A DNA stretch of 64,000 nucleotides from a virus: positions 40,845 to 104,844 of IMG/VR virus record IMGVR_UViG_3300044825_001015. One strand, 5' to 3'. Under the pieces are notes generated by a model. The model was not told where the DNA came from. It ran no database searches and saw only the letters and a list, made by a program, of their open reading frames with translations. Shown piece after piece: positions 11,463-43,023 of the stretch. Position 1 is the first letter of the stretch. Every line of letters begins with the position of its first letter. The translations under genes were made by a program, and so were the position numbers.

Positions 11463-13997
11463 ATGACAGTAAAAGCATTTAGATCAGCCTGGACATTAGT
11501 TAAAAATATAAAATCATTTAGATCTGGCATTGGATGGACAGATATTAAAAACATACGCGCATGGCGCGACCCCAATGGGGATAATATTGGATTCTGGGAT
11601 CTAGTTTATCCAGATTTACCAATATCTTCTGTAACTCCATTCGTATCTGGTACTGGGGAACCAGGAACTACATTTTCTCTATCCAATAATCAGCCATGGG
11701 TTAATGATGGGTATGTTAGAGTTCAAAATACTACTTACCAATGGGCTAGGTCAACAACATCTGGAGGCCCATATACCAATGTTTCTGGTGCTACTTCATC
11801 AACATACAATATTCAATCATCAGACTTAAATAATTATTTTATATGTAGAATTACAGGAACTAATGCAAAAGGCTCTACAACAGTTAATTCTTCACAAAGT
11901 TTACTAGTTAGTGATCCAAATTACACCTTTAACTTTTTACAGGAATTTGGAGTCAATGCTAACGCAATGATTATATTTGACAAAACAAATAATGTCTTCC
12001 CAGACACCGATATATTAATTATATCAGGAAGAGTACTCGCTTATTTCTTTGGGGACTACAAGCATTTTGATTTATGGTATAGATCAGATGCGACTACATT
12101 TAGACTTTATCATAGGATGTATAGAAATGATAGAACAACTAGGCCATCAACACCAGATATAGAATATGAAATAGTATTTACTAATGGTAGTAGAGTAGTA
12201 GATATATTTGTAATTAATCCAATAGCAACACAATACATATTAGATGATGTAGCATACCTAAAAGATTTTTTCCAGCAATTTAAAAGTTATAATATAGCGA
12301 ATTACGCAGCGGGAAGAAGATTTAGGGTTACTATGGATAGCACTACTGGAATATTTCAGGATTTCGCCTCGCCGTCAACAACAAGTCCTTCATTTACTGA
12401 TGGATGGATATATATTTCTTCTGGTAATGATAGTACTACTGGTACTATTACTTTTAGTTCATTACAAAATTTTCCATCCCCGTTGTCACCAGCACAGACG
12501 TTTGTTGGTCCCTACTTTTCATTTAATAAGTCAAATATGTTTTTCCCAAGATCGGTTACTATTAATAATGTATCCTATTCTAGTACGACTCAAGCAAGCG
12601 TATCTTGGTCGTATGGCACTTCAAGTCCATTAAACGGAACTTCATATACTATAGAAGTTTTGAATTCATCACAAACATCTGTTTTATCTACTCAGAATAC
12701 TACTTTAACTTCAGCAACAGTATCTGGACTTACAGTTGGAACATCATATGTAATTAGAGTTACCCCTAATTCAAGATCAGATTTTTTTGGTCAATATGGA
12801 TTTCCTACTGTGTCAAATTATTTACATGCTACTGTTCCTGGTGCCCCAACTGGAGTAACGGGTACTTCTGGAAATACTCAGGTAGCATTAAGTTGGACAG
12901 CGCCAACCTCTAATGGTGGATCTAACATTACTGGATATAAAATAAGATATTCTACAAATGGTGGTGTTAGTTGGCTTCCAGCAACACCAATTTCTACTGG
13001 AAGCACAACAACTTCATTTACTGTAACTGGACTAACTAATGGGACTTCATATATATTTCAGGTACTTGCTACCAATGCAATTGGAGATGGGGCATGGTCT
13101 TCATCCAGTTCATCAGTCACTCCGCAAGCAGTTGCTAGTAGAATTGGAGTAACGGTTTCCCCTGCTAGTGTACAAACTTTAAGTCAGACTGCTACATTTA
13201 CTGCACAATTACAGGATAATGCAACTCCGCCTAATAATGTTTCTATAAGTGGTAGAAGTATAACTTTTACATTAAATCCAGCCGCTGGAGGAAGTATTAA
13301 TACAACATCTGGGACAACAGATGCTAATGGCAGGGCGCAAGTTACATTTACTTCTGGATCACTAGGAGGAACTGCAACTGTTACTGCCACATCTACTGGA
13401 TTAACTCAAGGTTCAGCAGATTTAACAGTAACCCTTAGAGATGCATTAAATCCAACAATAACTGGAACTAGCACTACTAAAGGGGTCTCATTTTCAAATA
13501 CGAATCGTGACGCTGCATGGACATATTCTAATTGGATTGGACCTACAGTTGGAACGCTAGAATCTGGGGACTCGTATAATAATGCACAGTTCGATATATT
13601 AGTTCCAAGAGTAAAAAATCAAAATCCAAGTCTGACTGTAAATAGAACTGTCGGAAGTGGAGGAAACGCAGAAACAACAGATACTACATTTAATGCTAAT
13701 AGAAGCGTATCTATACAACTAATTTCATCAAGATCTGGGTATGCTTCTGGATTTAGTAATAGCGCTACCGCTACTGCTGGAGTTAGCATAGATGCTACTA
13801 GATCATATCAATGGCAACAATTTACTAATGGAACATGGAACACAAGTTTTGGAACAGCATTTTCAGGAATGCAAACCTTCAGATTGTCGTGGAGTAATAG
13901 AACCTTTACTTCTAGACAAATTAGATGTAGGGTAACTACTACATTTAGTGATGGCACTTCTGATATATCATTCAGCAATGAGCCAACTATTCCATAA
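11463..13997 (+). CDS. Ser/Thr-rich virion protein with FN3 and Big-1 Ig-like domains
   Basis: PGAPTGV..WTAPTSNGGSNITGYKI..GLTNGTSYIFQVLATNAIGDG (FN3); TTDANGRAQVTFTS (Big-1). Confidence 0.75.
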   Translation: MTVKAFRSAWTLVKNIKSFRSGIGWTDIKNIRAWRDPNGDNIGFWDLVYPDLPISSVTPFVSGTGEPGTTFSLSNNQPWVNDGYVRVQNTTYQWARSTTSGGPYTNVSGATSSTYNIQSSDLNNYFICRITGTNAKGSTTVNSSQSLLVSDPNYTFNFLQEFGVNANAMIIFDKTNNVFPDTDILIISGRVLAYFFGDYKHFDLWYRSDATTFRLYHRMYRNDRTTRPSTPDIEYEIVFTNGSRVVDIFVINPIATQYILDDVAYLKDFFQQFKSYNIANYAAGRRFRVTMDSTTGIFQDFASPSTTSPSFTDGWIYISSGNDSTTGTITFSSLQNFPSPLSPAQTFVGPYFSFNKSNMFFPRSVTINNVSYSSTTQASVSWSYGTSSPLNGTSYTIEVLNSSQTSVLSTQNTTLTSATVSGLTVGTSYVIRVTPNSRSDFFGQYGFPTVSNYLHATVPGAPTGVTGTSGNTQVALSWTAPTSNGGSNITGYKIRYSTNGGVSWLPATPISTGSTTTSFTVTGLTNGTSYIFQVLATNAIGDGAWSSSSSSVTPQAVASRIGVTVSPASVQTLSQTATFTAQLQDNATPPNNVSISGRSITFTLNPAAGGSINTTSGTTDANGRAQVTFTSGSLGGTATVTATSTGLTQGSADLTVTLRDALNPTITGTSTTKGVSFSNTNRDAAWTYSNWIGPTVGTLESGDSYNNAQFDILVPRVKNQNPSLTVNRTVGSGGNAETTDTTFNANRSVSIQLISSRSGYASGFSNSATATAGVSIDATRSYQWQQFTNGTWNTSFGTAFSGMQTFRLSWSNRTFTSRQIRCRVTTTFSDGTSDISFSNEPTIP

Positions 13998-31857: not shown

Positions 31858-32359
31858 GTTAACTAGTTCGTTTGATCAAATGAACTTAGTTGTAGAAGAA
31901 TTACTAAAAGGTAAAAATCCAACAGACATTGCTAAGTTCCTTGGAATTAAAAGATCTCAGGTTCTAGAACATATTGATACCTGGCGTGAATTAGTATCTG
32001 GAGATAGCAGAATCAGAGAAAGGGCCAAGGAAGCCTTGGCTGGTGCAGACCAGCATTATTCAATGATTATTCAGCGTGCATGGGAAACAGTAGATCAAGC
32101 AGATGCAAATCAGCAGTATAATACTAAAGCCTCCGCATTGAAGATGATTGCAGATGTTGAGCAAAAGAGAATTGACATGCTTCAAAAGGCTGGCCTTTTA
32201 GAAAATAATGAAATGTCTGCCCAACTTTTAGAAACTGAGCGTAAGCAAGAAATTCTTATGAATATTTTAAAGGAAGTAACATCTGACTGTAATCATTGTA
32301 AAGTAGAAGTTGCTAGAAGATTATCAGAAGTTACTGGCAAGGTAGAGCCAATTGATTGA
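31844..32359 (+). CDS. HTH protein, probable terminase small subunit
   Basis: N-terminal HTH; directly upstream of terL. Confidence 0.6.
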   Translation: MSEIELTSSFDQMNLVVEELLKGKNPTDIAKFLGIKRSQVLEHIDTWRELVSGDSRIRERAKEALAGADQHYSMIIQRAWETVDQADANQQYNTKASALKMIADVEQKRIDMLQKAGLLENNEMSAQLLETERKQEILMNILKEVTSDCNHCKVEVARRLSEVTGKVEPID

Positions 32360-34142
32360 TTTTAGTGACTTTATAGATGCACTTGACGGTGACCAATTTG
32401 AAGAGGTCCCAGCAGATATAGAGGAATTTGTCACTAATAATGACTACTTAGATTTACCCCCTCTTTCTGAATATCAATATCAATCTATTAGGGCAATGAC
32501 CCAAATTTATAAAAAGGATACTCTAGTAAAATGGCTAGGCGAGGAAGAGGGAATTAAGAGATGGAATCAGACATGCAAGGAAGTTATTCTTCAGATAGGG
32601 AAGGGCGGGGGGAAGGACTTTATCTCTACTATCGGGTGTGCCTATGTTGTCCACCTATTGTTGTGCCTAAAGGACCCTGCTAAGTATTATGGAAAGCCGC
32701 CAGGAGATTCAATTGACATTATTAACATTGCTATCAACGCTGTTCAAGCAAATAGGGTATTCTTTAAAGGATTCAAGCGCATCATTGAAAAGTCGGCTTG
32801 GTTCCAGGGAAGGTACATCCCAAAGGCTAACAGTATTGAATTTGATAAAGAAATAACAGTACACTCAGGACATTCAGAGGCAGAGTCCTGGGAGGGGTAC
32901 AATGTTATGTTGGCTATCCTTGACGAAATCTCAGGCTTTGAATTAGAAAATACTACAGGTCGTCAGAGTCCAAAAACTTCTGCTGCAATATATAAAATGT
33001 ATAGAGCGTCTGTTAACTCTCGCTTCCCAGATTTTGGTAAGGTCATTATGCTCTCCTTCCCCAGATTTAAGAATGACTTTATCCAGCAAAAATATAATGA
33101 TGCTGTGGCAGAAAAAGAGACTATAATAAAATCACACAGTTTTAAAATAGATCCAGACCTTCCTGATGGTCACGATGGAAATGAATTCACCATTGAGTGG
33201 GAGGAGGATCATATAGTATCCTACGCCCTACCCTACATCTTTGCGCTTAAAAGGCCCACATGGGAATTTAATCCGACTAGGAAAATACAAGACTTTACAA
33301 TTGCATTCTATGACGATCCATTAGACTCTCTAATGAGATTTGCCTGTATGCCTCCAGAGGCCACAGACGCATTCTTTAAGTCACGCGAAAAAATTGAAAA
33401 AGCATTTAGTAATCCTAAATTTGCTGTAGATTTTAGCGGAAGATTTGCAGAATGGTTTAAGCCAGAAGAAGGCCGTCAGTATTTCTTACACGTTGACTTA
33501 GCCCAAAAGCATGACAATTGTGCTGTTGCAATGGCACACATTGAGGGATGGGTACAGATGAAGATCGCTGGCACGATGACAGAGGCGGCTCCTAGAGTTG
33601 TAGTAGACGCCGTAAGATATTGGCAACCAACATCTACCACTAGCGTAGATTTATCAGAAGTAAAAGATTACATTATTGAATTGCGTGAGCGCGGGTTTAA
33701 TTTGGGAGTGGTCACGTTTGACCGCTGGAATTCTCATGATATGATGCAACAATTGAAGCATTATGGAATTAATACAGAGTTATTGTCTGTCGCAAAAAAG
33801 CACTATGAGGACATGGCCCTTTTAGTAACTGAAGAAAGAGTATACGGGCCAGAGATAAAACTTCTTATTGATGAATTATTACAGTTGAGAATTATCCGTG
33901 ATAAGGTAGACCACCCAAGAAAGGGAAGTAAGGACTTAGCAGACGCAGTTTGTGGCTCCATATATAATGCTATATCAAGATCCAGAAGAGACAATATGCA
34001 GGAAATAGAAATTTATTCCTACGATATGATTGCACAAGATAGCGAGGAAGAGATAAAATTAAGGATGGGACGACAAAGAAATAAAGATTTAATCATCCCT
34101 CCTGCTCTACAAAATGCTATTGACAGCATGGAAATAATTTAA
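32352..34142 (+). CDS. terL: Terminase large subunit
   Basis: GKGGGKD, ILDE, LHVDLA, TFDRW, KVDHP..GSKDLADA. Confidence 0.9.
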   Translation: MIDFSDFIDALDGDQFEEVPADIEEFVTNNDYLDLPPLSEYQYQSIRAMTQIYKKDTLVKWLGEEEGIKRWNQTCKEVILQIGKGGGKDFISTIGCAYVVHLLLCLKDPAKYYGKPPGDSIDIINIAINAVQANRVFFKGFKRIIEKSAWFQGRYIPKANSIEFDKEITVHSGHSEAESWEGYNVMLAILDEISGFELENTTGRQSPKTSAAIYKMYRASVNSRFPDFGKVIMLSFPRFKNDFIQQKYNDAVAEKETIIKSHSFKIDPDLPDGHDGNEFTIEWEEDHIVSYALPYIFALKRPTWEFNPTRKIQDFTIAFYDDPLDSLMRFACMPPEATDAFFKSREKIEKAFSNPKFAVDFSGRFAEWFKPEEGRQYFLHVDLAQKHDNCAVAMAHIEGWVQMKIAGTMTEAAPRVVVDAVRYWQPTSTTSVDLSEVKDYIIELRERGFNLGVVTFDRWNSHDMMQQLKHYGINTELLSVAKKHYEDMALLVTEERVYGPEIKLLIDELLQLRIIRDKVDHPRKGSKDLADAVCGSIYNAISRSRRDNMQEIEIYSYDMIAQDSEEEIKLRMGRQRNKDLIIPPALQNAIDSMEII

Positions 34143-34158
34143 TATAGTAATACTATAC

Positions 34159-34232
34159 GGGGCGGTGGCGCAGTCGGTGAGCGCAGTACTCTTATAAGGT
34201 AAAGGTCGTGGGTTCAAGTCCCACCCGCCCTA
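34159..34232 (+). tRNA. trnI: tRNA-Ile (anticodon UAU)
   Basis: Cloverleaf GGGGCGG/CCGCCCT, loop CT-TAT-AA, T arm GTGGG-TTCAAGT-CCCAC, discriminator A; no encoded CCA. Confidence 0.88.
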
Positions 34233-34233
34233 C

Positions 34234-34364
34234 GGTTACAGATGGCAATATCTTAGGATGGTGTAGTTACATACAAATATCCCGTTATAGCGAGTCTGCC
34301 GTTGAGTGCGTTGAATTCGTTTCTAGCGTCTTTCGTGCAAAAGGATTCGTAGCCATCTGTAATC
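34234..34364 (+). ncRNA. Unidentified structured RNA between tRNA-Ile and tRNA-Pro
   Basis: 13-bp closing stem GGTTACAGATGGC/GCCATCTGTAATC plus internal stems; fills the inter-tRNA gap exactly. Confidence 0.6.
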
Positions 34365-34367
34365 CTA

Positions 34368-34441
34368 CGGGATGTGGCGCAGTTTGGTAGCGCACCTGTT
34401 TTGGGAACAGGGGGCCGAAGGTTCAAATCCTTTCATCCCGA
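34368..34441 (+). tRNA. trnP: tRNA-Pro (UGG)
   Basis: CGGGATG/CATCCCG, anticodon arm CCTGT-TTTGGGA-ACAGG. Confidence 0.92.
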
Positions 34442-34442
34442 C

Positions 34443-34730
34443 ATGGAAATTTTATTTGTAATTACAGCAGGCACCTTGCTTGCAGAAGGATTTGCTTTTG
34501 TGCTTTTAATGAAGCATATAAAGCAAATTCGTTCTGAGTTTAATATGTATCAGAAGAACCAAAACGATGCAGATATAATTTCCGAAACTATAGATATGTA
34601 CCAGGAAAAAATTATAGAACTTGAAGAAAAAAATAATAAGTTATCAATAGAAAATAAACTTCTTCAAGAAAAACTATCTAAAATAAATAAGCAAATGAAG
34701 CAGATCAGCGATCATTTTAAAACAAACTGA
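34443..34730 (+). CDS. Membrane-anchored coiled-coil protein
   Basis: ATG after a 1-nt gap following tRNA-Pro; N-terminal TM helix. Confidence 0.6.
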   Translation: MEILFVITAGTLLAEGFAFVLLMKHIKQIRSEFNMYQKNQNDADIISETIDMYQEKIIELEEKNNKLSIENKLLQEKLSKINKQMKQISDHFKTN

Positions 34731-34742
34731 TATAATTAATGT

Positions 34743-34979
34743 ATGGGAGACTCAATGGAAACTGAAGTTCAGGGAAAGGAAAGAGTTCTTACCAGAAGCG
34801 ACAGGTGCGATGCTCCAAAGTGTCCAGCCCAAGCGTGGGTTATTGCTAAGTTTGTAACTGGAGAATTGTATTTCTGTGGGCACCACTTTGACAAGTATGA
34901 AGTCAGTATCATTCGTGATGCATATGACATTGTAGATGAAAGAGAATTTATCAATGCTAAATCAGAATCTTCTGCTTAG
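34743..34979 (+). CDS. Small Cys/His actinobacterial-type protein
   Basis: DRCD..CPAQA..LYFCGHH; leaderless after TGATATAAT. Confidence 0.6.
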   Translation: MGDSMETEVQGKERVLTRSDRCDAPKCPAQAWVIAKFVTGELYFCGHHFDKYEVSIIRDAYDIVDEREFINAKSESSA

Positions 34980-35463
34980 TAAGAAAGATAAAATAAAACT
35001 TGTTAGAGAGCGTGACGGATTTACATGCGCTATCTGCCTAAAAGATTTTAAAGCAAATTCTGATGTAACGTTAGATCATTGGATTCCCAAATCAGCGGGT
35101 GGATCTGAGGATATATCTAATCTAAGACTTGCACATAAAAAATGTAATGCATGGAAAAGCGATAGGATACCTAATGAAGATGGAACAATTCCTCCACGCC
35201 CTCCAAGATCTAATTTTCAGGATAGAAAGCGGAGAAAGCAGGAGATACTAGAAAACCTTTGCACAGATTGTTATGACGGAAGGCTTTTGCTGCAGGGGGA
35301 GACATGCCCATATTGTGGATCTCCAGCGGGTCCAGAAGACTGGCCCCATTGGGCAAGGCGTCCAGCAAACAAGTGTGATCATACTCCGCCAGAATGGTGT
35401 TGGGCATGTTCTATAGGAATAGTTGACCGAAAGCCAGTATTTTTGGTACTATTAGAGGGATAG
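34954..35463 (+). CDS. HNH endonuclease with C-terminal Cys-rich region
   Basis: RDGFTCAIC..TLDHWIPKSAGG..NLRLAHKKCN. Confidence 0.85.
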   Translation: MLNQNLLLSKKDKIKLVRERDGFTCAICLKDFKANSDVTLDHWIPKSAGGSEDISNLRLAHKKCNAWKSDRIPNEDGTIPPRPPRSNFQDRKRRKQEILENLCTDCYDGRLLLQGETCPYCGSPAGPEDWPHWARRPANKCDHTPPEWCWACSIGIVDRKPVFLVLLEG

Positions 35464-35467
35464 GTAA

Positions 35468-35538
35468 TCCCCATTGGTGTAATGGCAGCACAAATGACTT
35501 TGGATCATTTAGTCGTAGTTCGAATCTATGATGGGGAG
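35468..35538 (+). tRNA. trnQ: tRNA-Gln (UUG)
   Basis: TCCCCAT/ATGGGGA, AATGA-CTTTGGA-TCATT. Confidence 0.9.
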
Positions 35539-35550
35539 CGGGAGGTAAAA

Positions 35551-35799
35551 ATGCCTTGGAAGATAGTAAGAAACTTTGGTGATTGCAATGGATATGCAGT
35601 AGTCAAAGAGGGGACTAGTGAGATTGAAGGTTGTCATTCTACTAGGTCCGCAGCAGAAGCACAGCAACGTGCGCTATATGCATCTGAAAATAAGTCAATT
35701 CATAATGATGATGAAGAGGATGATGAGCGCAGAGGTAAGCGCAGAAATGAATCCCACAAATTCTGGGATGGCGCATTTATTGAAAAGGGTTATAATTGA
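35551..35799 (+). CDS. Small protein with C-terminal KFWDGAF motif
   Basis: GGAGG SD; MPWKI..GCH..AAEAQQRALYASE. Confidence 0.65.
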   Translation: MPWKIVRNFGDCNGYAVVKEGTSEIEGCHSTRSAAEAQQRALYASENKSIHNDDEEDDERRGKRRNESHKFWDGAFIEKGYN

Positions 35800-35938
35800 C
35801 ACGCGATAAAGTAATTGAGAAACTTAAGAATAAGAGAATGGAGAATAACGCTATCTCTAGCGAAATCTCCTCATACATTGCAGGATGGAATGGTGCAATC
35901 GACTATGCCATTCAGCAACTAAAGAAGAAAGATTAATT

Positions 35939-36352
35939 ATGAAGAAGATTATTATTGCTACTGCAATTTCTGCTGTAGCGCTAGTTGGATGTACTTCACA
36001 GTCAGCACAACCAGCACCTACTGTAACTATTACAAAGGCTGCACCAGCACCATCACTAGATGATCCAGAGGTAATCCCACAACCAGCCATGGGTAATGAG
36101 GAACTGTACCTTATTGGTCTTAAGTCGATGGATAATCCGCTTATCAATATTGCTACAGACGAGCAACTTCTTGATATGGGCTACTCCGTATGCGAGGCTC
36201 TTGAATCTGGGTTCACAGTAGAGGATATTATTCAGTATATGGCTACAGAGATGGCAAGAGAGGGTCTTACTTCTGATTACCAGTCAGAGGCAGTAGGATA
36301 TATTATTGGGGCTGCAGATACCGCTCTGTGCCCAGGATCTAGTACATTCTAG
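35939..36352 (+). CDS. DUF732-like lipoprotein
   Basis: Lipobox LVGC; GYSVCEAL..AADTALCP. Confidence 0.75.
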   Translation: MKKIIIATAISAVALVGCTSQSAQPAPTVTITKAAPAPSLDDPEVIPQPAMGNEELYLIGLKSMDNPLINIATDEQLLDMGYSVCEALESGFTVEDIIQYMATEMAREGLTSDYQSEAVGYIIGAADTALCPGSSTF

Positions 36353-36360
36353 ATCCAAAC

Positions 36361-36431
36361 GCGGCTGTGGTGTAGAGGTAACACATCTGCCTTCCAAGCA
36401 GTTATCGCCAGTTCGATTCTGGTCAGCCGCT
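36361..36431 (+). tRNA. trnG: tRNA-Gly (UCC)
   Basis: GCGGCTG/CAGCCGC, loop CT-TCC-AA. Confidence 0.92.
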
Positions 36432-36433
36432 CT

Positions 36434-37105
36434 ATGAGTGATTTAAAGTATTCTGTTGTTGAATATGATACATACTTAACATATGCTATATGGACGCCAG
36501 AAAGAGAAGATTCTGATTTTATAATAGGATATGGAACAGAAGTATCAGTAATTTATCCAATAGTAGAATATATTTATCCTAACGATTATCCAAATAATTC
36601 TGGGTGGAATAGATTATTAAAATCCAAAATTTTTAAAAACCAAAGAGGAGAGTATTCTGGTCAAGGATGTGATGAATCAGGAACAATGCCATTATTTAAT
36701 TTACATTATTCTTTACCAGTAATATTTAGAGCGTTTTCACACAAAGACTACAAGGCGCTATTTACAATTCTCATGGCACTAGCATTAGTAGATAGTAAAA
36801 ATAGATTTGGGACAGAGGGAGTGTCGTCTTTTGAACTATCACCAGAGATGCTTAATTTCTTAGAAAGAACTGATAAATTCTGGGGTAGCAGAAGCGCAGA
36901 AATACACATGAAGGCCGAACTTCTTGAAGAATATGATTCTGACAATTGGGAAGTAAAACTTCCTAAAAACAAAATATTAGACATTGAAAAAAATGTAGTA
37001 TTGCAATCTAAGGCAGAATTCAAGCGCAGAATATTTTACAAAAAATATAGCAATAGAGTAAACTTAAGTAATTGTGAGCAGTTAGAAATAGACTGGCCCC
37101 AGTAA
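36434..37105 (+). CDS. Hypothetical protein
   Basis: Starts 2 nt after tRNA-Gly; its stop codon lies inside tRNA-Arg. Confidence 0.6.
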   Translation: MSDLKYSVVEYDTYLTYAIWTPEREDSDFIIGYGTEVSVIYPIVEYIYPNDYPNNSGWNRLLKSKIFKNQRGEYSGQGCDESGTMPLFNLHYSLPVIFRAFSHKDYKALFTILMALALVDSKNRFGTEGVSSFELSPEMLNFLERTDKFWGSRSAEIHMKAELLEEYDSDNWEVKLPKNKILDIEKNVVLQSKAEFKRRIFYKKYSNRVNLSNCEQLEIDWPQ

Positions 37106-37168
37106 CTCAGAGGATAGAGTGTCGGACTTCTAATCCGTTGGTCGCAGGTTCGAATCCTGCCTGGGGCG
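37096..37168 (+). tRNA. trnR: tRNA-Arg (UCU)
   Basis: GCCCCAG/CTGGGGC, loop CT-TCT-AA. Confidence 0.92.
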
Positions 37169-37169
37169 C

Positions 37170-37682
37170 GTGGAAAAAATATATCATAAATTTCATATAT
37201 CTGACTATCTTAATATAAAAAGTGATTTGATAGAAAAGATACACCTCTCTGAGTCAAAAAAGGACTTTGAGAATATATCAAGGACAGACTGGGATATTAA
37301 AAACGATGACCTTGATAGAGACTGGGCTAAGTGCTTTTTAGATAATTTTTATAAAAAAATAAAGTACACATATAACCAAATTGGATTTAAAAAAATAGAA
37401 ATACAAAATATCTGGTTCCAAGAGTACGATTACCAGTCGAGTTTTGAGTGGCATAACCATCCAGGAGCAGACTTTGCAAGCGTATTCTTTTTGAATTTTT
37501 CAAAAAATAATCCTGGAACAGAATTCATGGTAAATGATAAAATATTAAGAGCAGAAGTAGAGGAAGGAGATATAATTATATTTCCAGCAACTATAATGCA
37601 TAGATCTCCACCAAATTTATCTGATGATAAAAGAATTATTATAGCCTTTAATGTAAAAGTAAATGAAAAAAATATGTCATAA
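37170..37682 (+). CDS. 2OG-Fe(II) oxygenase / cupin (TIGR02466-like)
   Basis: WHNHP..EEGDIIIFPA..HRS..RIIIAFN. Confidence 0.75.
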   Translation: MEKIYHKFHISDYLNIKSDLIEKIHLSESKKDFENISRTDWDIKNDDLDRDWAKCFLDNFYKKIKYTYNQIGFKKIEIQNIWFQEYDYQSSFEWHNHPGADFASVFFLNFSKNNPGTEFMVNDKILRAEVEEGDIIIFPATIMHRSPPNLSDDKRIIIAFNVKVNEKNMS

Positions 37683-37770
37683 TTGTAAAAATGAAAAGGA
37701 TCTAATAGAATTCCTTTTAAAGTCAGGGCAACGAGTTGGCGCTAGAGGAATTTGTTTAGATTGCTTCAAT

Positions 37771-37850
37771 GCCAGATAGTCCCCAAGGTGGGGAAGCGGT
37801 CTGTAAAACCGTCGCCATCGGCATGGTTGGTTCGATTCCAACATCTGGCA
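37771..37850 (+). tRNA. trnY: tRNA-Tyr (GUA)
   Basis: GCCAGAT/ATCTGGC, loop CT-GTA-AA, long variable arm. Confidence 0.88.
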
Positions 37851-37854
37851 CTTG

Positions 37855-37926
37855 TGGCGTGTGGCGCAATGGCAGCGCAATCGGCTGTTAACCGATGGGT
37901 TGTAGGTTCGAATCCTACCACGCCAG
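37855..37926 (+). tRNA. trnN: tRNA-Asn (GUU)
   Basis: TGGCGTG/CACGCCA, ATCGG-CTGTTAA-CCGAT. Confidence 0.92.
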
Positions 37927-37927
37927 C

Positions 37928-38914
37928 GTGAAGAGTATATTTGTTTCTGTAGTTTCTTTTAATGAACCTTTTTTAAAAGAGACTATTTTAAGTGCAATAA
38001 AAAAATCTAGTAAGCCAGAAAGAATATACTTTGGTGTTGTAGAACAACGTACTGACTCAAACTTTGCAGACCTAAAAGAAATAAAAAATGTAAAGCATAT
38101 TTCTATGCAAGTAGGAGGCCCACTTGGAGTAGGCATTCCAAGAAAACTAAGCATGGAACTTCTAGATAATCAAGATTACTGTCTAATCATAGATTCTCAT
38201 ATGATTTTTAATGACAACTGGGACGAAAATATAATCAGAAGAATAAAGCACATAAGTAAAATTTATTCTGAAAAAGTTATTATATCTCAGCATTTACCAG
38301 TATTAGATGTAGATGATAATAATTTAGTTTTATATCCAGAAAAGAAAAAAGACACACCATGTTATTTAAAATTTGATGGAATATTTATTGATGACATTCC
38401 AATACCAAATGGTCATGAATTTTATCAGCAGTACGCACTCACATGCCACTATTTGTTTTCACTTTCAAAATCCTTCAAGGAAGTAGTGTTTGATCCACGA
38501 ATATTTTATTTCGCAGAAGAGTCATCCTTAGCGATGAGATTTATAACTAGAGGATATAAAATATTTTCTACGAGATATTTCCCTATGTTTCATCTACAAA
38601 AAACAAATGGTAAAAAAATTAAAAGTTGGCAGACATTAAATGGAACATCAAGGCTTCAAGACGATATTGAAATAGTTTATAGTATATTTTCGGGCAAGGA
38701 AATAGGTGTATGGGGGGCACCGTCAAAATGTAGGTTAGATGATTTTTTGGCGGAATCTAGGCTAGACATATCATATTATATGTCTGGGGTAGACCATGAT
38801 TTAGATATAAATAAGCAAATAAGAAGTAAGATAGTAGACATGTTTGATAATGGTAATGATTTTTATGAAAACCTATATCAAAATTTTATTCCAGCAATAA
38901 GGAGTCCTAAATGA
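37928..38914 (+). CDS. GlcNAc transferase, GT60-like (Skp1-hydroxyproline GlcNAc-transferase family)
   Basis: SIFVSVVS..PERIYFGVVEQ..LIIDSHMIF..WDE; EE motif. Confidence 0.75.
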   Translation: MKSIFVSVVSFNEPFLKETILSAIKKSSKPERIYFGVVEQRTDSNFADLKEIKNVKHISMQVGGPLGVGIPRKLSMELLDNQDYCLIIDSHMIFNDNWDENIIRRIKHISKIYSEKVIISQHLPVLDVDDNNLVLYPEKKKDTPCYLKFDGIFIDDIPIPNGHEFYQQYALTCHYLFSLSKSFKEVVFDPRIFYFAEESSLAMRFITRGYKIFSTRYFPMFHLQKTNGKKIKSWQTLNGTSRLQDDIEIVYSIFSGKEIGVWGAPSKCRLDDFLAESRLDISYYMSGVDHDLDINKQIRSKIVDMFDNGNDFYENLYQNFIPAIRSPK

Positions 38915-40590
38915 AGGTTTTAGGGTTGTCTCCGTTTCATGATGCTGGCGCAGTCCTAGTAGAAGACGGGTTTGTAAAAAAATATTTTAAAGAAGAAAGA
39001 CTTAATAGAATAAAAAGAAGTTCCTGTCCAGAATTATCTATAGAGAAATGTTTAGAGGGCGTAGAAGAAGTTGAATTATTTTCATACTCTGCAGCGACAC
39101 ACAGATTATCATTCGCAAAAAGAGATGAAGATTTATCTTATAAGTTTCTACATTGGCAAGATGCCGTTAAAAAGCATTCAAAATTAATAGATTCAATAGA
39201 TTTATCTAGAATGCATCATCTCCAGCACGCATCCACTTCATTTTATAATAGCGGGTTTAGTGATGCTGCTGTCATAGTTGTCGATGGTAGAGGCTCTAAC
39301 TTTGGAACTATAGTAGAAACAGAAACAATATTTTATGCAGAGTATCCAGATATTTTTACTCCTGTATATAAAGCATATGAAAAAACATTTAGATTTAATA
39401 AAGAAGATGTAGATCGGGAAAGAAAAAGGCTTCCAGATTGTGAAATAAAAGTATCTTCTAATTTAGGAATAACTCACCTATACTGCACGGCAACACATTT
39501 GATTAATGAATCATTCTTAGAAAATGGAAAGACTATGGGCCTTTCCGCGTATGGAGATGCTAGCATTAATTACGAGCCGCTACTCTTGGAGGGAGAAGCC
39601 CTAGTAGATCCAGGCAAATTTATTATTTTTGAAACTCCAGAATTAGCAGAATCACCGCTTGAAGTTATTTATCATAAAGACTATGTAGGTAAACAAAATA
39701 TTGTAACTAAAGAAAACTATCATATTTATGCTAATTATGCTTTACATGTTCAAAAAGAAACAGAACGTGCATTAGAAATATTAGTAAATAAGGCAATAGA
39801 AAAAACTGGTAGTAAAAACATATGTTTGGCAGGAGGCTATGGACTTAATATAGTTAATAATTTAAAGTTGCTTCAAAAGTTTCCTGGGGTAAAGTTTTAT
39901 TTCGATCCAATGTCTGATGACGGAGGTACTTCAATCGGTGGAGCAATGATTGCTTATAGATCTGTAACTAAGGATCGTGAACCGAAACCTATTAAAAATA
40001 ATTTTATACATGGGATAGATCATGATATAAGTAATATAAAGGGTACCAGCGTTTCAGAAAAAGATATTGCTAAAATAATTTATTCTGGAAATATAGTAGC
40101 AATGTATTACGGTCTAGCGGAGGCTGGACCAAGGGCACTAGGAAATAGATCCATCTTGTTTGATCCTAGAATAAAAAATGGAAAAGATATAATTAATGTA
40201 GTAAAAAAAAGAGAGTGGTATAGGCCATTTGCTGCCTCTATGCTAGAGGAAGATGCCACTAGGTACTTTGACTACATTGATAATATTGGTTATGAATACA
40301 TGCTAGTTAATGCAATAGCAAAGCCAGATACTAAAGACATAATCCCCTCCGTTATTCATGAAGATGGATCATGTAGAATACATATAGTAAAAGATACTAG
40401 CCACCCACTATTTAAATTACTTACAAGTTTTAAAGAAATAACTGGCATCGGAGTTCTTCTTAATACAAGTTTCAACCTTGCTGGAGAGCCACTTATTGAA
40501 ACTCCACAGGAAGCAATCGGCACCTGGAAGATTTCAGATATAGATTGTTTATGGTTTCCAAAGATACAAACTGCTCTAATAAAAACATGA
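38911..40590 (+). CDS. Carbamoyltransferase (NodU/CmcH/TobZ family)
   Basis: HDAG, EERLNR, HHLQHA, GKTMGLSAYG, EAGPRALGNRS, KKREWYRPFA, LNTSFN. Confidence 0.92.
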   Translation: MKVLGLSPFHDAGAVLVEDGFVKKYFKEERLNRIKRSSCPELSIEKCLEGVEEVELFSYSAATHRLSFAKRDEDLSYKFLHWQDAVKKHSKLIDSIDLSRMHHLQHASTSFYNSGFSDAAVIVVDGRGSNFGTIVETETIFYAEYPDIFTPVYKAYEKTFRFNKEDVDRERKRLPDCEIKVSSNLGITHLYCTATHLINESFLENGKTMGLSAYGDASINYEPLLLEGEALVDPGKFIIFETPELAESPLEVIYHKDYVGKQNIVTKENYHIYANYALHVQKETERALEILVNKAIEKTGSKNICLAGGYGLNIVNNLKLLQKFPGVKFYFDPMSDDGGTSIGGAMIAYRSVTKDREPKPIKNNFIHGIDHDISNIKGTSVSEKDIAKIIYSGNIVAMYYGLAEAGPRALGNRSILFDPRIKNGKDIINVVKKREWYRPFAASMLEEDATRYFDYIDNIGYEYMLVNAIAKPDTKDIIPSVIHEDGSCRIHIVKDTSHPLFKLLTSFKEITGIGVLLNTSFNLAGEPLIETPQEAIGTWKISDIDCLWFPKIQTALIKT

Positions 40591-40609
40591 TTGCTGGTAT
40601 AATTGTAAT

Positions 40610-40975
40610 ATGGAACTCTATGATGAATTAACAGAAGAAGAAAAAGCATATCATGATGCAATGGTTTCTATTGCAGAAAGATTTGGCCCGTTTGACCAGG
40701 GAACATCAAGTATTTGGGTTGGATATGAAGGCCCAGAAGACAATGAAGATGCTCAAATTGGTGTTAAGTGTGCTAATTGCTCCCTGCATATTGAGAGAGA
40801 AGACGGTCAATTAGGATGTGCTATCCTTTCTTATCTAGTTCATCCAGAAGCAAAGTGCCGCTTGGCAGCAATTCCAGATGGCTATGTAAATGCATCAATG
40901 GATGATGAAGATGATGATCCAAATGACGACGATGATATGATGGGCAAATTCTGGGGCGGATCTTTTCTTAAATGA
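40610..40975 (+). CDS. Acidic 4-Cys protein with C-terminal KFWGGSFL motif
   Basis: CANC..C..C; leaderless after TGGTATAAT. Confidence 0.6.
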   Translation: MELYDELTEEEKAYHDAMVSIAERFGPFDQGTSSIWVGYEGPEDNEDAQIGVKCANCSLHIEREDGQLGCAILSYLVHPEAKCRLAAIPDGYVNASMDDEDDDPNDDDDMMGKFWGGSFLK

Positions 40976-41262
40976 ATAATGTAATTACCACGGAGACAAT
41001 CCGTGGCGGAGGTGGCGGAATAAAGAATCCAGACCACTCAGATGGTAAAATAAAAATAGGTAAATCTCCGCTTAAAGTTCGTCGCGGGAAGAAGTAGTGT
41101 TCACTTTTTATTGCTTAGTTAAACACAATGGTAACTACTACCTCAGACCTTACATTACTTTGTATAATAATATGATTGAAATTGTAAATTATCCAAAATC
41201 GTTGACCATATCGTAATATTCCGGTATAATAGAATTCATGTTGCCGCCACAAGGAGGTCAAT

Positions 41263-41877
41263 ATGACGACAATAAACCGATTTGGTGCTGCATTAGTATC
41301 AACAGTAACAGTATTATCAATGCTACTAATCTCTCCAAACCTGGCGTATGCTAAGTCTACGCCTTTGGCGGAAGGTACGGGTAACTTTGCCACCGCTGAT
41401 ACATTAGAAAGAAGGGCAATAACAGATAGAAACTGGACTTTGCCATCTAACTGTAATGATAAGCAGGCAAAGATACTATTTAAGGCGGGTTTTAATAGAC
41501 CTGGAATGCTAAGAGGAGCCTGGGCAATTACCTGGCGTGAATCTAAGCACCAGAATCTTTCCGAAAGCAGTCCTTGGTATTCAGGTGCGTTGGGTACTTG
41601 GCAAATTCAAACAAGTGCCTGGTCAGGAAAATCCTGGTGGTCTAGGGATAATATGCTAGACAAAGATAAGCAATCAGAAATTGTAAGAAAGCATTTCCTT
41701 AATGATGGTATGCATAATTGGGGATATGACTATTCATTTAAAAATGACTCATGGCATGAAGATGCAGGAATGTATTATTCACTATGGGGTTCTGGACTAA
41801 CGTATTCATGGGTAATCGCACCATTCAATACTGGATGGTCGTTGTTCCCAAAGAAATGTACACCTGAAAAGATTTAA
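41263..41877 (+). CDS. Secreted lysozyme-like / lytic transglycosylase
   Basis: Signal peptide (AYA); WAITWRES catalytic Glu; GTWQI; AAGGAGG SD. Confidence 0.7.
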   Translation: MTTINRFGAALVSTVTVLSMLLISPNLAYAKSTPLAEGTGNFATADTLERRAITDRNWTLPSNCNDKQAKILFKAGFNRPGMLRGAWAITWRESKHQNLSESSPWYSGALGTWQIQTSAWSGKSWWSRDNMLDKDKQSEIVRKHFLNDGMHNWGYDYSFKNDSWHEDAGMYYSLWGSGLTYSWVIAPFNTGWSLFPKKCTPEKI

Positions 41878-41930
41878 ATGATAGAATTATATTCTAGGCG
41901 CAAATAAAATTGCGGCAACAGCCTAGGATC

Positions 41931-42003
41931 GCCACAGTAACTCAGTTGGTAGAGTACCCGCCTTGTAAGCGGAAAGTCATCGGTTCGAATCCGATCTGTG
42001 GCT
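41931..42003 (+). tRNA. trnT: tRNA-Thr (UGU)
   Basis: GCCACAG/CTGTGGC, loop CT-TGT-AA. Confidence 0.92.
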
Positions 42004-42004
42004 C

Positions 42005-42322
42005 ATGGACTATAGTAATGAAGAAATAGAACACTTCATGAACTATTTAGAAGATGAAGGCGTTCTTGAATGGGTAGGTATGAGTGACGATGGAGAAAGA
42101 ACGTTCGTCTTTAATTTTGAAAAGATGTACTTTGTTTTCCCAGAACTATATCATGCGATGATGGAAGAATTAAATAAAGAGTTGTTAAATCTTTACGACC
42201 TAGGGTTAGTTACTATAGAATACGATACAAATCTGCAGGCAAAATTTAGAATAACAGATGCTGGTAAAAAATATTTAGAAGAAAATGGTGTTCCAATACC
42301 AGAAGATTGGGAAGACGAGTGA
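42005..42322 (+). CDS. Winged-helix-like acidic protein
   Basis: LYDLGLV...FRITDAGKKYL. Confidence 0.55.
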   Translation: MDYSNEEIEHFMNYLEDEGVLEWVGMSDDGERTFVFNFEKMYFVFPELYHAMMEELNKELLNLYDLGLVTIEYDTNLQAKFRITDAGKKYLEENGVPIPEDWEDE

Positions 42323-43023
42323 GAAAAGTACTAACAAAGGAATACATCGAAAACCTTGGCTATGAGGTAGAAGAAATAAGTTATAGAATCTTTTTAGTAA
42401 AAAATTTTCTTACTGATGCAGAATCAAATAAATTAGTTAAAATAGGTAGACAGTCTAGTGATGAAGAATGGTCCTTTCATTACATGAATGGTGTCAGAGA
42501 GATGGCGCTATCAAAGTTCGGTAGAACAGATTTAGATAACTTAGTTGCAGAAGGACTATACGAAATAACTCATAATTGGATAGATAAGACCCTTCCAATT
42601 AAAGATGATAATTTAAGAATAAGCCTAGACAAGAGATGCCAAAGATTGTTTGACTTTGTAGATGATCTGCAATTCAAAGGATGCGGAACTATTCAGAGAC
42701 AATATGATGGTGTTCCACTAAAAGATCATGTTGACAATCATACAGATCCATCACTAGAATATGCAGTAGTTTTTTATCTGAATGACGACTATACTAATGG
42801 TGAAGTGTTTTTTGTAAATCAAGAAATACAGATGCGTCCTCCAAAAAATTCTCTTTTAATATTTCCAACATCAGAAGAATGGAGACATGGGGTAAATGCC
42901 CCAGGGCCAGGGCCACATAGATATGTGATCCCAGGATTTGTTGAGGTAAGAGATTTCTGGAAAAAGCATGAAGAGAATGGGTATAATTTAGAGGTAACGT
43001 TGAGCGAACTTAAAGGAGATTAA
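42319..43023 (+). CDS. 2OG-Fe(II) oxygenase, prolyl-4-hydroxylase-like
   Basis: HVD..YLNDDYTNGE..HGV..R. Confidence 0.85.
   Translation: MRKVLTKEYIENLGYEVEEISYRIFLVKNFLTDAESNKLVKIGRQSSDEEWSFHYMNGVREMALSKFGRTDLDNLVAEGLYEITHNWIDKTLPIKDDNLRISLDKRCQRLFDFVDDLQFKGCGTIQRQYDGVPLKDHVDNHTDPSLEYAVVFYLNDDYTNGEVFFVNQEIQMRPPKNSLLIFPTSEEWRHGVNAPGPGPHRYVIPGFVEVRDFWKKHEENGYNLEVTLSELKGD

Follow-up and report, generated by a model that had tools for sequence, protein, structure and literature searches.

tRNA genes flush with start codons in a putative freshwater actinobacterial phage: possible release of leaderless messages by tRNA processing

A tRNA array with start codons at tRNA 3' ends

The window analysed here comprises the final 64 kb (bases 40845-104844) of the 104,844-bp virus record IMGVR_UViG_3300044825_001015 in IMG/VR; coordinates refer to the window unless stated otherwise. 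The record carries a 127-bp direct terminal repeat, and the phage genome is therefore complete. ARAGORN detects 11 tRNA genes in this phage, eight of them on the + strand within 34159-42004, in an array interspersed with open reading frames (ORFs). At five of these tRNAs (Pro, Gly, Arg, Asn and Thr) the discriminator nucleotide N73 is followed by C74 and, 0-1 nucleotides (nt) later, by the ATG or GTG of a gene (lengths in amino acids, aa):

34368-34442, + strand: tRNA-Pro(UGG), found by ARAGORN and Rfam; A73 at 34441, C74, ATG at 34443
34443-34730, + strand: g2, 95 aa, with an N-terminal hydrophobic helix and a coiled coil; ATG flush after C74
36361-36432, + strand: tRNA-Gly(UCC); T73 at 36431, C74 at 36432, then T and ATG at 36434
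36434-37105, + strand: g7, 223 aa, no function assigned; ATG 1 nt past C74, that is, at C74+2
37096-37169, + strand: tRNA-Arg(UCU); G73 at 37168, C74 at 37169, GTG at 37170
37170-37682, + strand: g8, 170-aa 2-oxoglutarate (2OG)-Fe(II) oxygenase (PF13759, 1.4e-9; phrog_81, 2e-32); GTG flush after C74
37771-37927, + strand: tRNA-Tyr(GUA) and tRNA-Asn(GUU), 3 nt apart; G73 of tRNA-Asn at 37926, C74 at 37927, GTG at 37928
37928-38914, + strand: g9, 328-aa glycosyltransferase (PF11397, 7.7e-27; phrog_24687, from residue 1); GTG flush after C74
41931-42004, + strand: tRNA-Thr(UGU); T73 at 42003, C74 at 42004, ATG at 42005
42005-42322, + strand: g13, 105 aa, of a widespread viral family without assigned function; ATG flush after C74

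The ends given by ARAGORN and by the Rfam tRNA model agree at all five discriminators, and the Rfam model scores the tRNAs as genuine (42-71 bits). CCA is encoded by none of the 11 tRNA genes, C74 being followed by a non-C in every case, and neither a Shine-Dalgarno (SD) tetramer (AGGA, GGAG or GAGG) nor a -10 box is present within 20 nt upstream of any of the five starts. The initial annotation of the window had described five tRNAs with a start codon 1-2 nt past the discriminator, without encoded CCA or SD, and an ORF between tRNA-Gly and tRNA-Arg that stops inside the latter. All of this can be read in the sequence: the ORF in question, g7, ends with a TAA at 37103-37105, and tRNA-Arg begins at 37096. 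The genes had also been termed accessory enzymes, a description that suits g8 and g9, which are recognisable enzymes, and not the other three products, to which Pfam and PHROG searches assign no family; for g7 and g13, Pfam, PHROGs and a protein atlas yielded no function, and g2 is predicted to be a small membrane and coiled-coil protein.

Six + strand tRNAs stand immediately before an ORF, and at five of them the start is flush. The exception, tRNA-Gln(UUG) (35468-35539, + strand), is followed by GGGAGG and then, at +12, by the ATG at 35551 of an 82-aa ORF that extends to 35799, and thus exemplifies an SD-led arrangement within the same array. The flush starts at five of six positions, together with their recurrence in relatives, argue that the junction pattern is more than chance. 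In AT-rich DNA many ORFs can be extended to an upstream ATG or GTG, which might produce such a pattern by coincidence or through annotation artefacts; yet eight types of tRNA/gene-family junction recur in relatives despite saturated synonymous divergence, and g8 and g9 have clear family matches, so that this explanation is hardly credible.

The flush codons as translation starts

Relatives were collected by a terminase scan of IMG/VR, from which 80 of more than 590 related loci were taken (L005-L084); L085 is the locus of the Streptomyces phage Gilson. The same gene families are found there in different upstream contexts. One of them, g26, begins with a GTG directly after tRNA-Arg and C in L011 and L017 and with an ATG 6 nt behind TGATATACT in L007, and the three N-termini match residue for residue. 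In L011, where g9 is SD-led (GGAGGG-N10-GTG), its first residue corresponds to that of the flush window copy, and in distant relatives g13 is SD-led with an N-terminus that is equal to within 1 aa; members of viral clusters related to g13 match it in length, at 105-110 aa. The g7 orthologues in L011 and L017 also share the N-terminus of g7. Because the N-termini of homologues coincide, including those of SD-led and promoter-leaderless copies in other phages, the five ATG or GTG codons are the true start codons. Amino-acid conservation in relatives begins at codon 2, and the first beta-strand of g9 begins at residue 4.

For g2, g7 and g13, which are kept in relatives, the proportion of non-synonymous differences (pN) is well under the saturated proportion of synonymous differences (pS, 0.5-0.9) in every pair, and the ratio of the corresponding rates (dN/dS) is 0.02-0.75 for the pairs with computable dS. 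It amounts to 0.17-0.75 for g2 across relatives and to 0.14 for g7 in the single pair with computable dS; across the g7 comparisons, pN is 0.20-0.22 and pS 0.68-0.79.

It was also considered that translation may begin at downstream in-frame codons behind an SD, the flush codons being incidental. Candidates exist in g2 (GTG at +58 behind GAAGGA), g13 (ATG at +34) and g8 (TTG at +58), whereas g7 and g9 have no alternative start inside 60 nt. A downstream start would be at odds with the early first strand of g9, for which the PHROG profile is aligned from its first residue, with the onset of conservation at the second codon and with the constant length of the g13 family. The g9, g13 and g26 homologues in other contexts begin at the equivalent residue. 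Such downstream starts, which the initial annotation had named as an outcome that would speak against it, are thus very unlikely.

Conservation and spacing of the junctions

With offsets counted from C74, the arrangement in the close clade (terminase at least 90% identical) is constant for two tRNAs: tRNA-Pro is always followed by g2 with its ATG at +1, though the N-terminal sequences of g2 have diverged, and tRNA-Thr always by g13 at +1. Behind tRNA-Gly, one of two g7 forms starts at +1, +2 or +4, and tRNA-Arg is followed at +1 by the GTG of g26, a gene different from that in the window. In L007 and L008, tRNA-Gln precedes yet another gene at +1, and in a more distant clade (L051, L058, L068) a 173-aa ORF starts at +1 behind tRNA-Arg(UCU). 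The start codon stays flush while synonymous sites are saturated, which shows that the flush junction is under selection.

The window and its relatives provide 98 distinct junctions between a tRNA and an ORF, the start being taken as that of the first opening ORF of at least 60 aa. The sequences are related, not all of them independent, and represent eight independent tRNA/gene-family combinations. Their offsets from C74 are distributed as follows:

+1: 19 of 98 junctions (15 ATG, 4 GTG)
+2 to +4: 6 of 98
+5 to +9: 0 of 98
+10 to +16: 19 of 98, mostly with an SD; mode at +12
+17 or more: 54 of 98

A peak at +1 with a gap from +5 to +9 is expected if the start has to be either terminal or far enough away to accommodate an SD or a promoter. 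TTG is used at none of the 98 junctions, and the 25 starts at +1 to +4 consist exclusively of ATG and GTG. Two of the apparent short offsets (+3 and +4; L052 and L057) are probably false, as a TGTATAAT promoter precedes a later ATG. In some relatives, GAGG or GGAGG lies within the acceptor stem, merely 3 nt from the ATG.

The tRNA 3' end and a candidate cut at C74

Every one of the 192 distinct tRNA genes from the window and its relatives has C74, whereas CCA is encoded by just 27 of them (14%). The Gilson locus follows the same rule, with C74 in 20 of 20 tRNA and transfer-messenger RNA (tmRNA) genes, and in its GenBank annotation two coding sequences begin at C74+1, after tRNA-Phe and tRNA-Arg. 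The invariant C74 points to an actinobacterial rule of 3'-end processing or CCA repair by which this nucleotide is required or retained. In Streptomyces coelicolor, most CCA-encoding tRNA precursors are cleaved between the two Cs, C74|C75 (Romero et al. 2014, PMC4681348), and the same cut has been mapped in Propionibacterium acnes, which has no RNase Z homologue (Lin et al. 2013, PMC3848588). Mycobacterial RNase E cleaves immediately 5' of a cytidine, RN|CNU (PMC10641625). Profile searches found neither a CCA-adding enzyme (PF01743) nor an RNase Z-type metallo-beta-lactamase (PF12706) encoded by the phage.

Two cut sites are therefore plausible by analogy: cleavage after C74 would give a message with a 0-nt leader, and cleavage before C74 a message beginning C-AUG or C-GUG with a 1-nt leader (2 nt in the case of tRNA-Gly). 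The initial annotation had assigned the cut to RNase Z, acting directly after the discriminator. In view of the mapped C74|C75 cuts, of P. acnes managing without RNase Z and of RNase E cutting 5' of C, this enzyme is still a candidate and would be only one option among several, RNase E or another nuclease being others.

A leaderless route in an actinobacterial setting

The phage reads as a freshwater actinobacterial phage whose host can be placed to Actinomycetota only. Its DNA has been found in freshwater and lake metagenomes, and its genome contains two WhiB genes. The terminase (32352-34142, 596 aa) is 58-62% identical to those of ~128-kb Streptomyces phages (Stanwilliamsviridae), and Gordonia and Rhodococcus phages are among many further matches; the placement of the host is based on the WhiB genes and on this terminase, nearest to Streptomyces and Gordonia phages. 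The GC content is ~37% in the long + strand arm versus ~50% in the short - strand early arm past ~52 kb. A megablast search against cultured phages returned a sole match, 81 nt of the carbamoyltransferase gene to cyanophages. In a scan of genome contigs for the WhiB protein, the single match (71% identical) was on a 7-kb contig (L086, JBIKTI010000524.1) in a metagenome-assembled genome labelled 'Phycisphaerales', which is probably a mis-binned relative of the phage.

Elsewhere in its genome, the phage uses leaderless genes made by promoters. Eight first-start ORFs, spread over late and early arms alike, carry TGnTAnnnT exactly 6 nt before their ATG (window positions 11463 (an 844-aa ORF), 34743 (g3), 40610 (g11), 50764, 61690 (- strand) and 61879 (- strand); genome positions 2580 and 26886). 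The arrangement at g11 is kept in five of six relatives compared, and in many distant relatives a promoter-plus-ATG module lies directly 3' of a tRNA. In mycobacteria, a 5'-terminal ATG or GTG is both necessary and sufficient for initiation on leaderless mRNA, TTG being poor (PMC4633059), and the restriction of the flush starts to ATG and GTG fits this rule. The distribution of offsets also fits Caulobacter reporters, in which leaderless translation was approximately halved per added 5' nt (PMC8459731). The actinobacterial leaderless setting that had been proposed for the array thus gains support from the WhiB genes, the terminase, the eight promoter-leaderless starts and the exclusive use of ATG and GTG at flush junctions.

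Release by tRNA processing and its alternatives

These features could be connected in the following manner: The tRNAs and the accessory genes between them would be co-transcribed from a few promoters. Host 3' maturation would then cut the precursor at C74, either just after or just before it, leaving a downstream fragment with a 5' phosphate that begins with AUG or GUG, or with C-AUG or C-GUG. Actinobacterial ribosomes may translate this fragment by the leaderless route, for which no SD is necessary. We give a little better than an even chance to this scheme, in which host processing at C74 releases mRNAs with a 0-1-nt leader for leaderless translation. The broader notion that tRNA excision frees a ready-to-translate leaderless message, as in mitochondria, is probably correct.

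Transcription would have to reach the flush ORFs through the tRNAs, since these contain no -10 box at the right distance; strong promoter-like sites are present at 34120 and 41202, and no + strand terminator is predicted in 33900-42500. A promoter hidden in the 3' half of the tRNA that initiates transcription at the start codon itself, which would make the messages leaderless by transcription instead of processing, is accordingly very improbable. It would match the habit of the phage to place -10 boxes 6 nt before ATG elsewhere, and the 3' part of tRNA-Gln in L007 does have TATGAT 7 nt before a flush ATG; yet TANNNT is found 5-8 nt upstream at none of the five window junctions, and the positions required are constrained bases of the T-stem and acceptor stem.

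Several observations weigh against release by processing. The stop codon of g7 occupies positions 8-10 of tRNA-Arg, and L011 and L017 have the same overlap; in L007 and L013, a longer form of g7 stops 3-7 nt short of the tRNA. RNase P cleavage would therefore leave the g7 message without a stop, which means that not every molecule can be fully excised before it is translated; g7 would be either translated before processing or rescued. On their 5' sides the tRNAs are not flush, with gaps of 4-88 nt. If the host makes 3' ends by cutting further downstream and trimming back with exonucleases, a precursor would give either the tRNA or the mRNA and not both. A 5'-monophosphate end also invites decay, and the leaderless capacity of the host is carried over from Mycobacterium and Streptomyces. 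Finally, the five ORFs are no less structured over their first 40 nt than 104 other genes, although this folding comparison is uninformative. Base pairs across the tRNA/mRNA boundary are not predicted. No RNA run is listed as containing window positions 34100-42400, and in two metatranscriptome-labelled runs of the same study the only matches were 30-55-nt tRNA pieces from other organisms.

Some of these points favour a different explanation, which we regard as rather unlikely: the flush codons are used, and their position reflects compaction only, with ribosomes initiating internally on unprocessed polycistronic RNA without an SD. The maturation of the tRNA would then compete with expression of the ORF or be irrelevant to it, and the folded tRNA might stabilise the 5' side of the message. 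The genome is indeed very compact, with overlapping genes throughout, and the g7 stop needs the first 10 nt of tRNA-Arg, which implies that unprocessed RNA is translated at least there. Of the leadered genes of M. smegmatis, 53% lack a canonical SD (PMC6448022), and maturation of the E. coli type, in which an endonuclease cuts downstream and exonucleases trim (reviewed in PMC4681348), would destroy the 5' end of the ORF. Compaction leaves unexplained, however, why starts cluster at C74+1 and are void from +5 to +9, why TTG is absent and why the same genes alternate with promoter-leaderless contexts. Moreover, a stable tRNA helix that ends 2 nt before the start would presumably offer no single-stranded landing site to the 30S subunit.

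Relation to known systems

Ojala, Montoya and Attardi reportedly introduced the concept of tRNA punctuation for animal mitochondrial transcripts in 1981. As in these mitochondria (reviewed in PMC3790967 and PMC4394434), the phage tRNAs abut coding sequences in putative polycistronic units, excision would form the mRNA 5' end, and the messages would have no leader or SD: at the five junctions the coding sequence starts at C74+1 or +2, and this is kept in relatives. In contrast to mitochondria, the phage tRNAs are flush on their 3' side only, stop codons are complete, one of them inside the next tRNA, and the array has interspersed promoters and SD-led genes; furthermore, the system is that of a bacterial virus relying on host nucleases. 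The likeness to mitochondrial punctuation drawn in the initial annotation consequently holds for the starts at C74+1 or +2 and does not extend to the ORF ends, which have complete stops and are set apart from the next tRNA or, in g7, overlap it.

With the promoter-made leaderless mRNAs of Actinobacteria (PMC4633059, PMC6448022) the putative phage messages would share an ATG or GTG at, or a few nt from, the 5' end and the lack of an SD, and sister phages use that route for the same families (g26, g11). Unlike in those mRNAs, the 5' end would arise by cleavage (monophosphate) and not by initiation (triphosphate). The t-elements of plant mitochondria (PMC1920247) are similar in that mRNA ends are set where RNase P or RNase Z cleaves a tRNA or a tRNA-like structure; they are tRNA mimics that mostly leave untranslated regions, whereas the phage tRNAs are bona fide and flush with start codons.

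The closest counterpart in culture is Gilson (NC_048742, Stanwilliamsviridae), in which the terminase is likewise followed by tRNAs that alternate with small ORFs and an HNH gene, the latter at the matching place after tRNA-Pro, and which shares the invariant C74 and the coding sequences at C74+1. Unlike the window phage, Gilson comes from soil, has a high-GC genome of 128 kb and carries a tmRNA and a larger number of tRNAs; the two terminases are just 62% identical, and the flush ORFs of Gilson encode small products of 49 and 59 aa. The presence of the same junctions in cultured Streptomyces relatives makes the idea directly testable.

In the bacterial tufB operon and the tRNA cluster of phage T4, tRNAs and ORFs share a transcript that is processed by RNase P and 3' nucleases. 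In contrast to the junctions described here, the downstream ORFs in those systems retain an SD-bearing leader. Literature searches, partial in coverage, returned no description of flush tRNA-to-start-codon junctions in phages.

Should the proposed cleavage occur, bacteria and their viruses would have a third route to a translatable message, in addition to SD leaders and to leaderless transcripts made by promoters. Accessory genes of the phage would depend on tRNA maturation for their expression. The cleavage would also account for the small ORFs scattered through phage tRNA arrays and for the trouble that gene callers and annotators have with such starts. Tentatively, at somewhat less than even chances, the tRNAs of a large actinobacterial phage family, comprising the freshwater phages and Stanwilliamsviridae, may be dual-purpose: host cleavage at C74 would yield a tRNA and a leaderless mRNA, and each tRNA would be a portable expression module, independent of promoter and SD, as well as a conserved recombination anchor for swaps of accessory genes. 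On this reading, tRNA punctuation of the mitochondrial kind would have a counterpart in bacterial viruses.

Gene turnover and other elements of the array

In phages with terminases ~92% identical, the genes after tRNA-Arg, tRNA-Asn/Tyr and tRNA-Gln differ and the flanks are syntenic, which marks the tRNA array as a variable accessory island with the tRNAs as constant landmarks. The accessory genes may have been exchanged by recombination within the tRNAs. With regard to the earlier suggestion that tRNA 3' ends are hotspots of gene capture, the mosaic gene content behind the same tRNAs among close relatives is plain, and exchange through the tRNAs themselves is what we infer from it. In the position held by the g8 oxygenase in the window (37170-37682), sister phages have a ~250-aa protein with an HxD...H motif after tRNA-Arg (L011:10260-11021, L007:10440-11174). 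Both proteins open with GTG-GAA or GTG-GTA, and the larger one is possibly a distant paralogue of the 2OG-Fe(II) oxygenase.

The remaining elements of the array are:

34120-34148, + strand: promoter TTGACA-17-TATAGT, 11 of 12 consensus matches, 10 nt before tRNA-Ile; identified by consensus match only
34159-34233, + strand: tRNA-Ile(UAU) including C74; a structured RNA, not an ORF, is flush at its 3' side
34234-34364, + strand: structured RNA of ~130 nt between tRNA-Ile and tRNA-Pro, with a 12-bp closing helix
34728-34979, + strand: promoter and g3 (78 aa); extended -10 TGATATAAT at 34728-34736, 6 nt, ATG at 34743, a promoter-made leaderless start
34936-35463: HNH endonuclease gene between tRNA-Pro and tRNA-Gln
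38911-40590, + strand: g10, carbamoyltransferase, overlapping the end of g9
40595-40975, + strand: promoter and g11 (121 aa); TGGTATAAT, 6 nt, ATG at 40610, a promoter-made leaderless start
41202-41230, + strand: promoter TTGACC-17-TATAAT, upstream of g12, tRNA-Thr and g13
41263-41877, + strand: g12, SD-led

The promoter ahead of tRNA-Ile is probably the one from which the beginning of the tRNA/ORF array is transcribed. The structured RNA has no family match in Rfam. Compensatory changes are found at 10 of the 12 pairs of its closing helix (14 relatives), and it recurs in relatives from L006 to L071 (e.g., L031:12741-12865 and L033:5088-5208) with a length of ~115-138 nt and conserved CTTAGGATG...TATAGTTACATA loops. 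It is always flush 3' of a tRNA and usually just before another one, the flanking tRNAs varying between relatives, which fits the idea that this phage family may release neighbouring RNAs by tRNA processing.

In the - strand early arm, tRNA-Trp and tRNA-Leu each have TTGACA directly past C74 (56691-56696 and 59099-59104). After tRNA-Leu the run continues TGTCAG-N10-TAGAGT, and the tRNA-Trp of Gilson has CTTGAC behind it. In these places, tRNA ends may be directly joined to promoter boxes.

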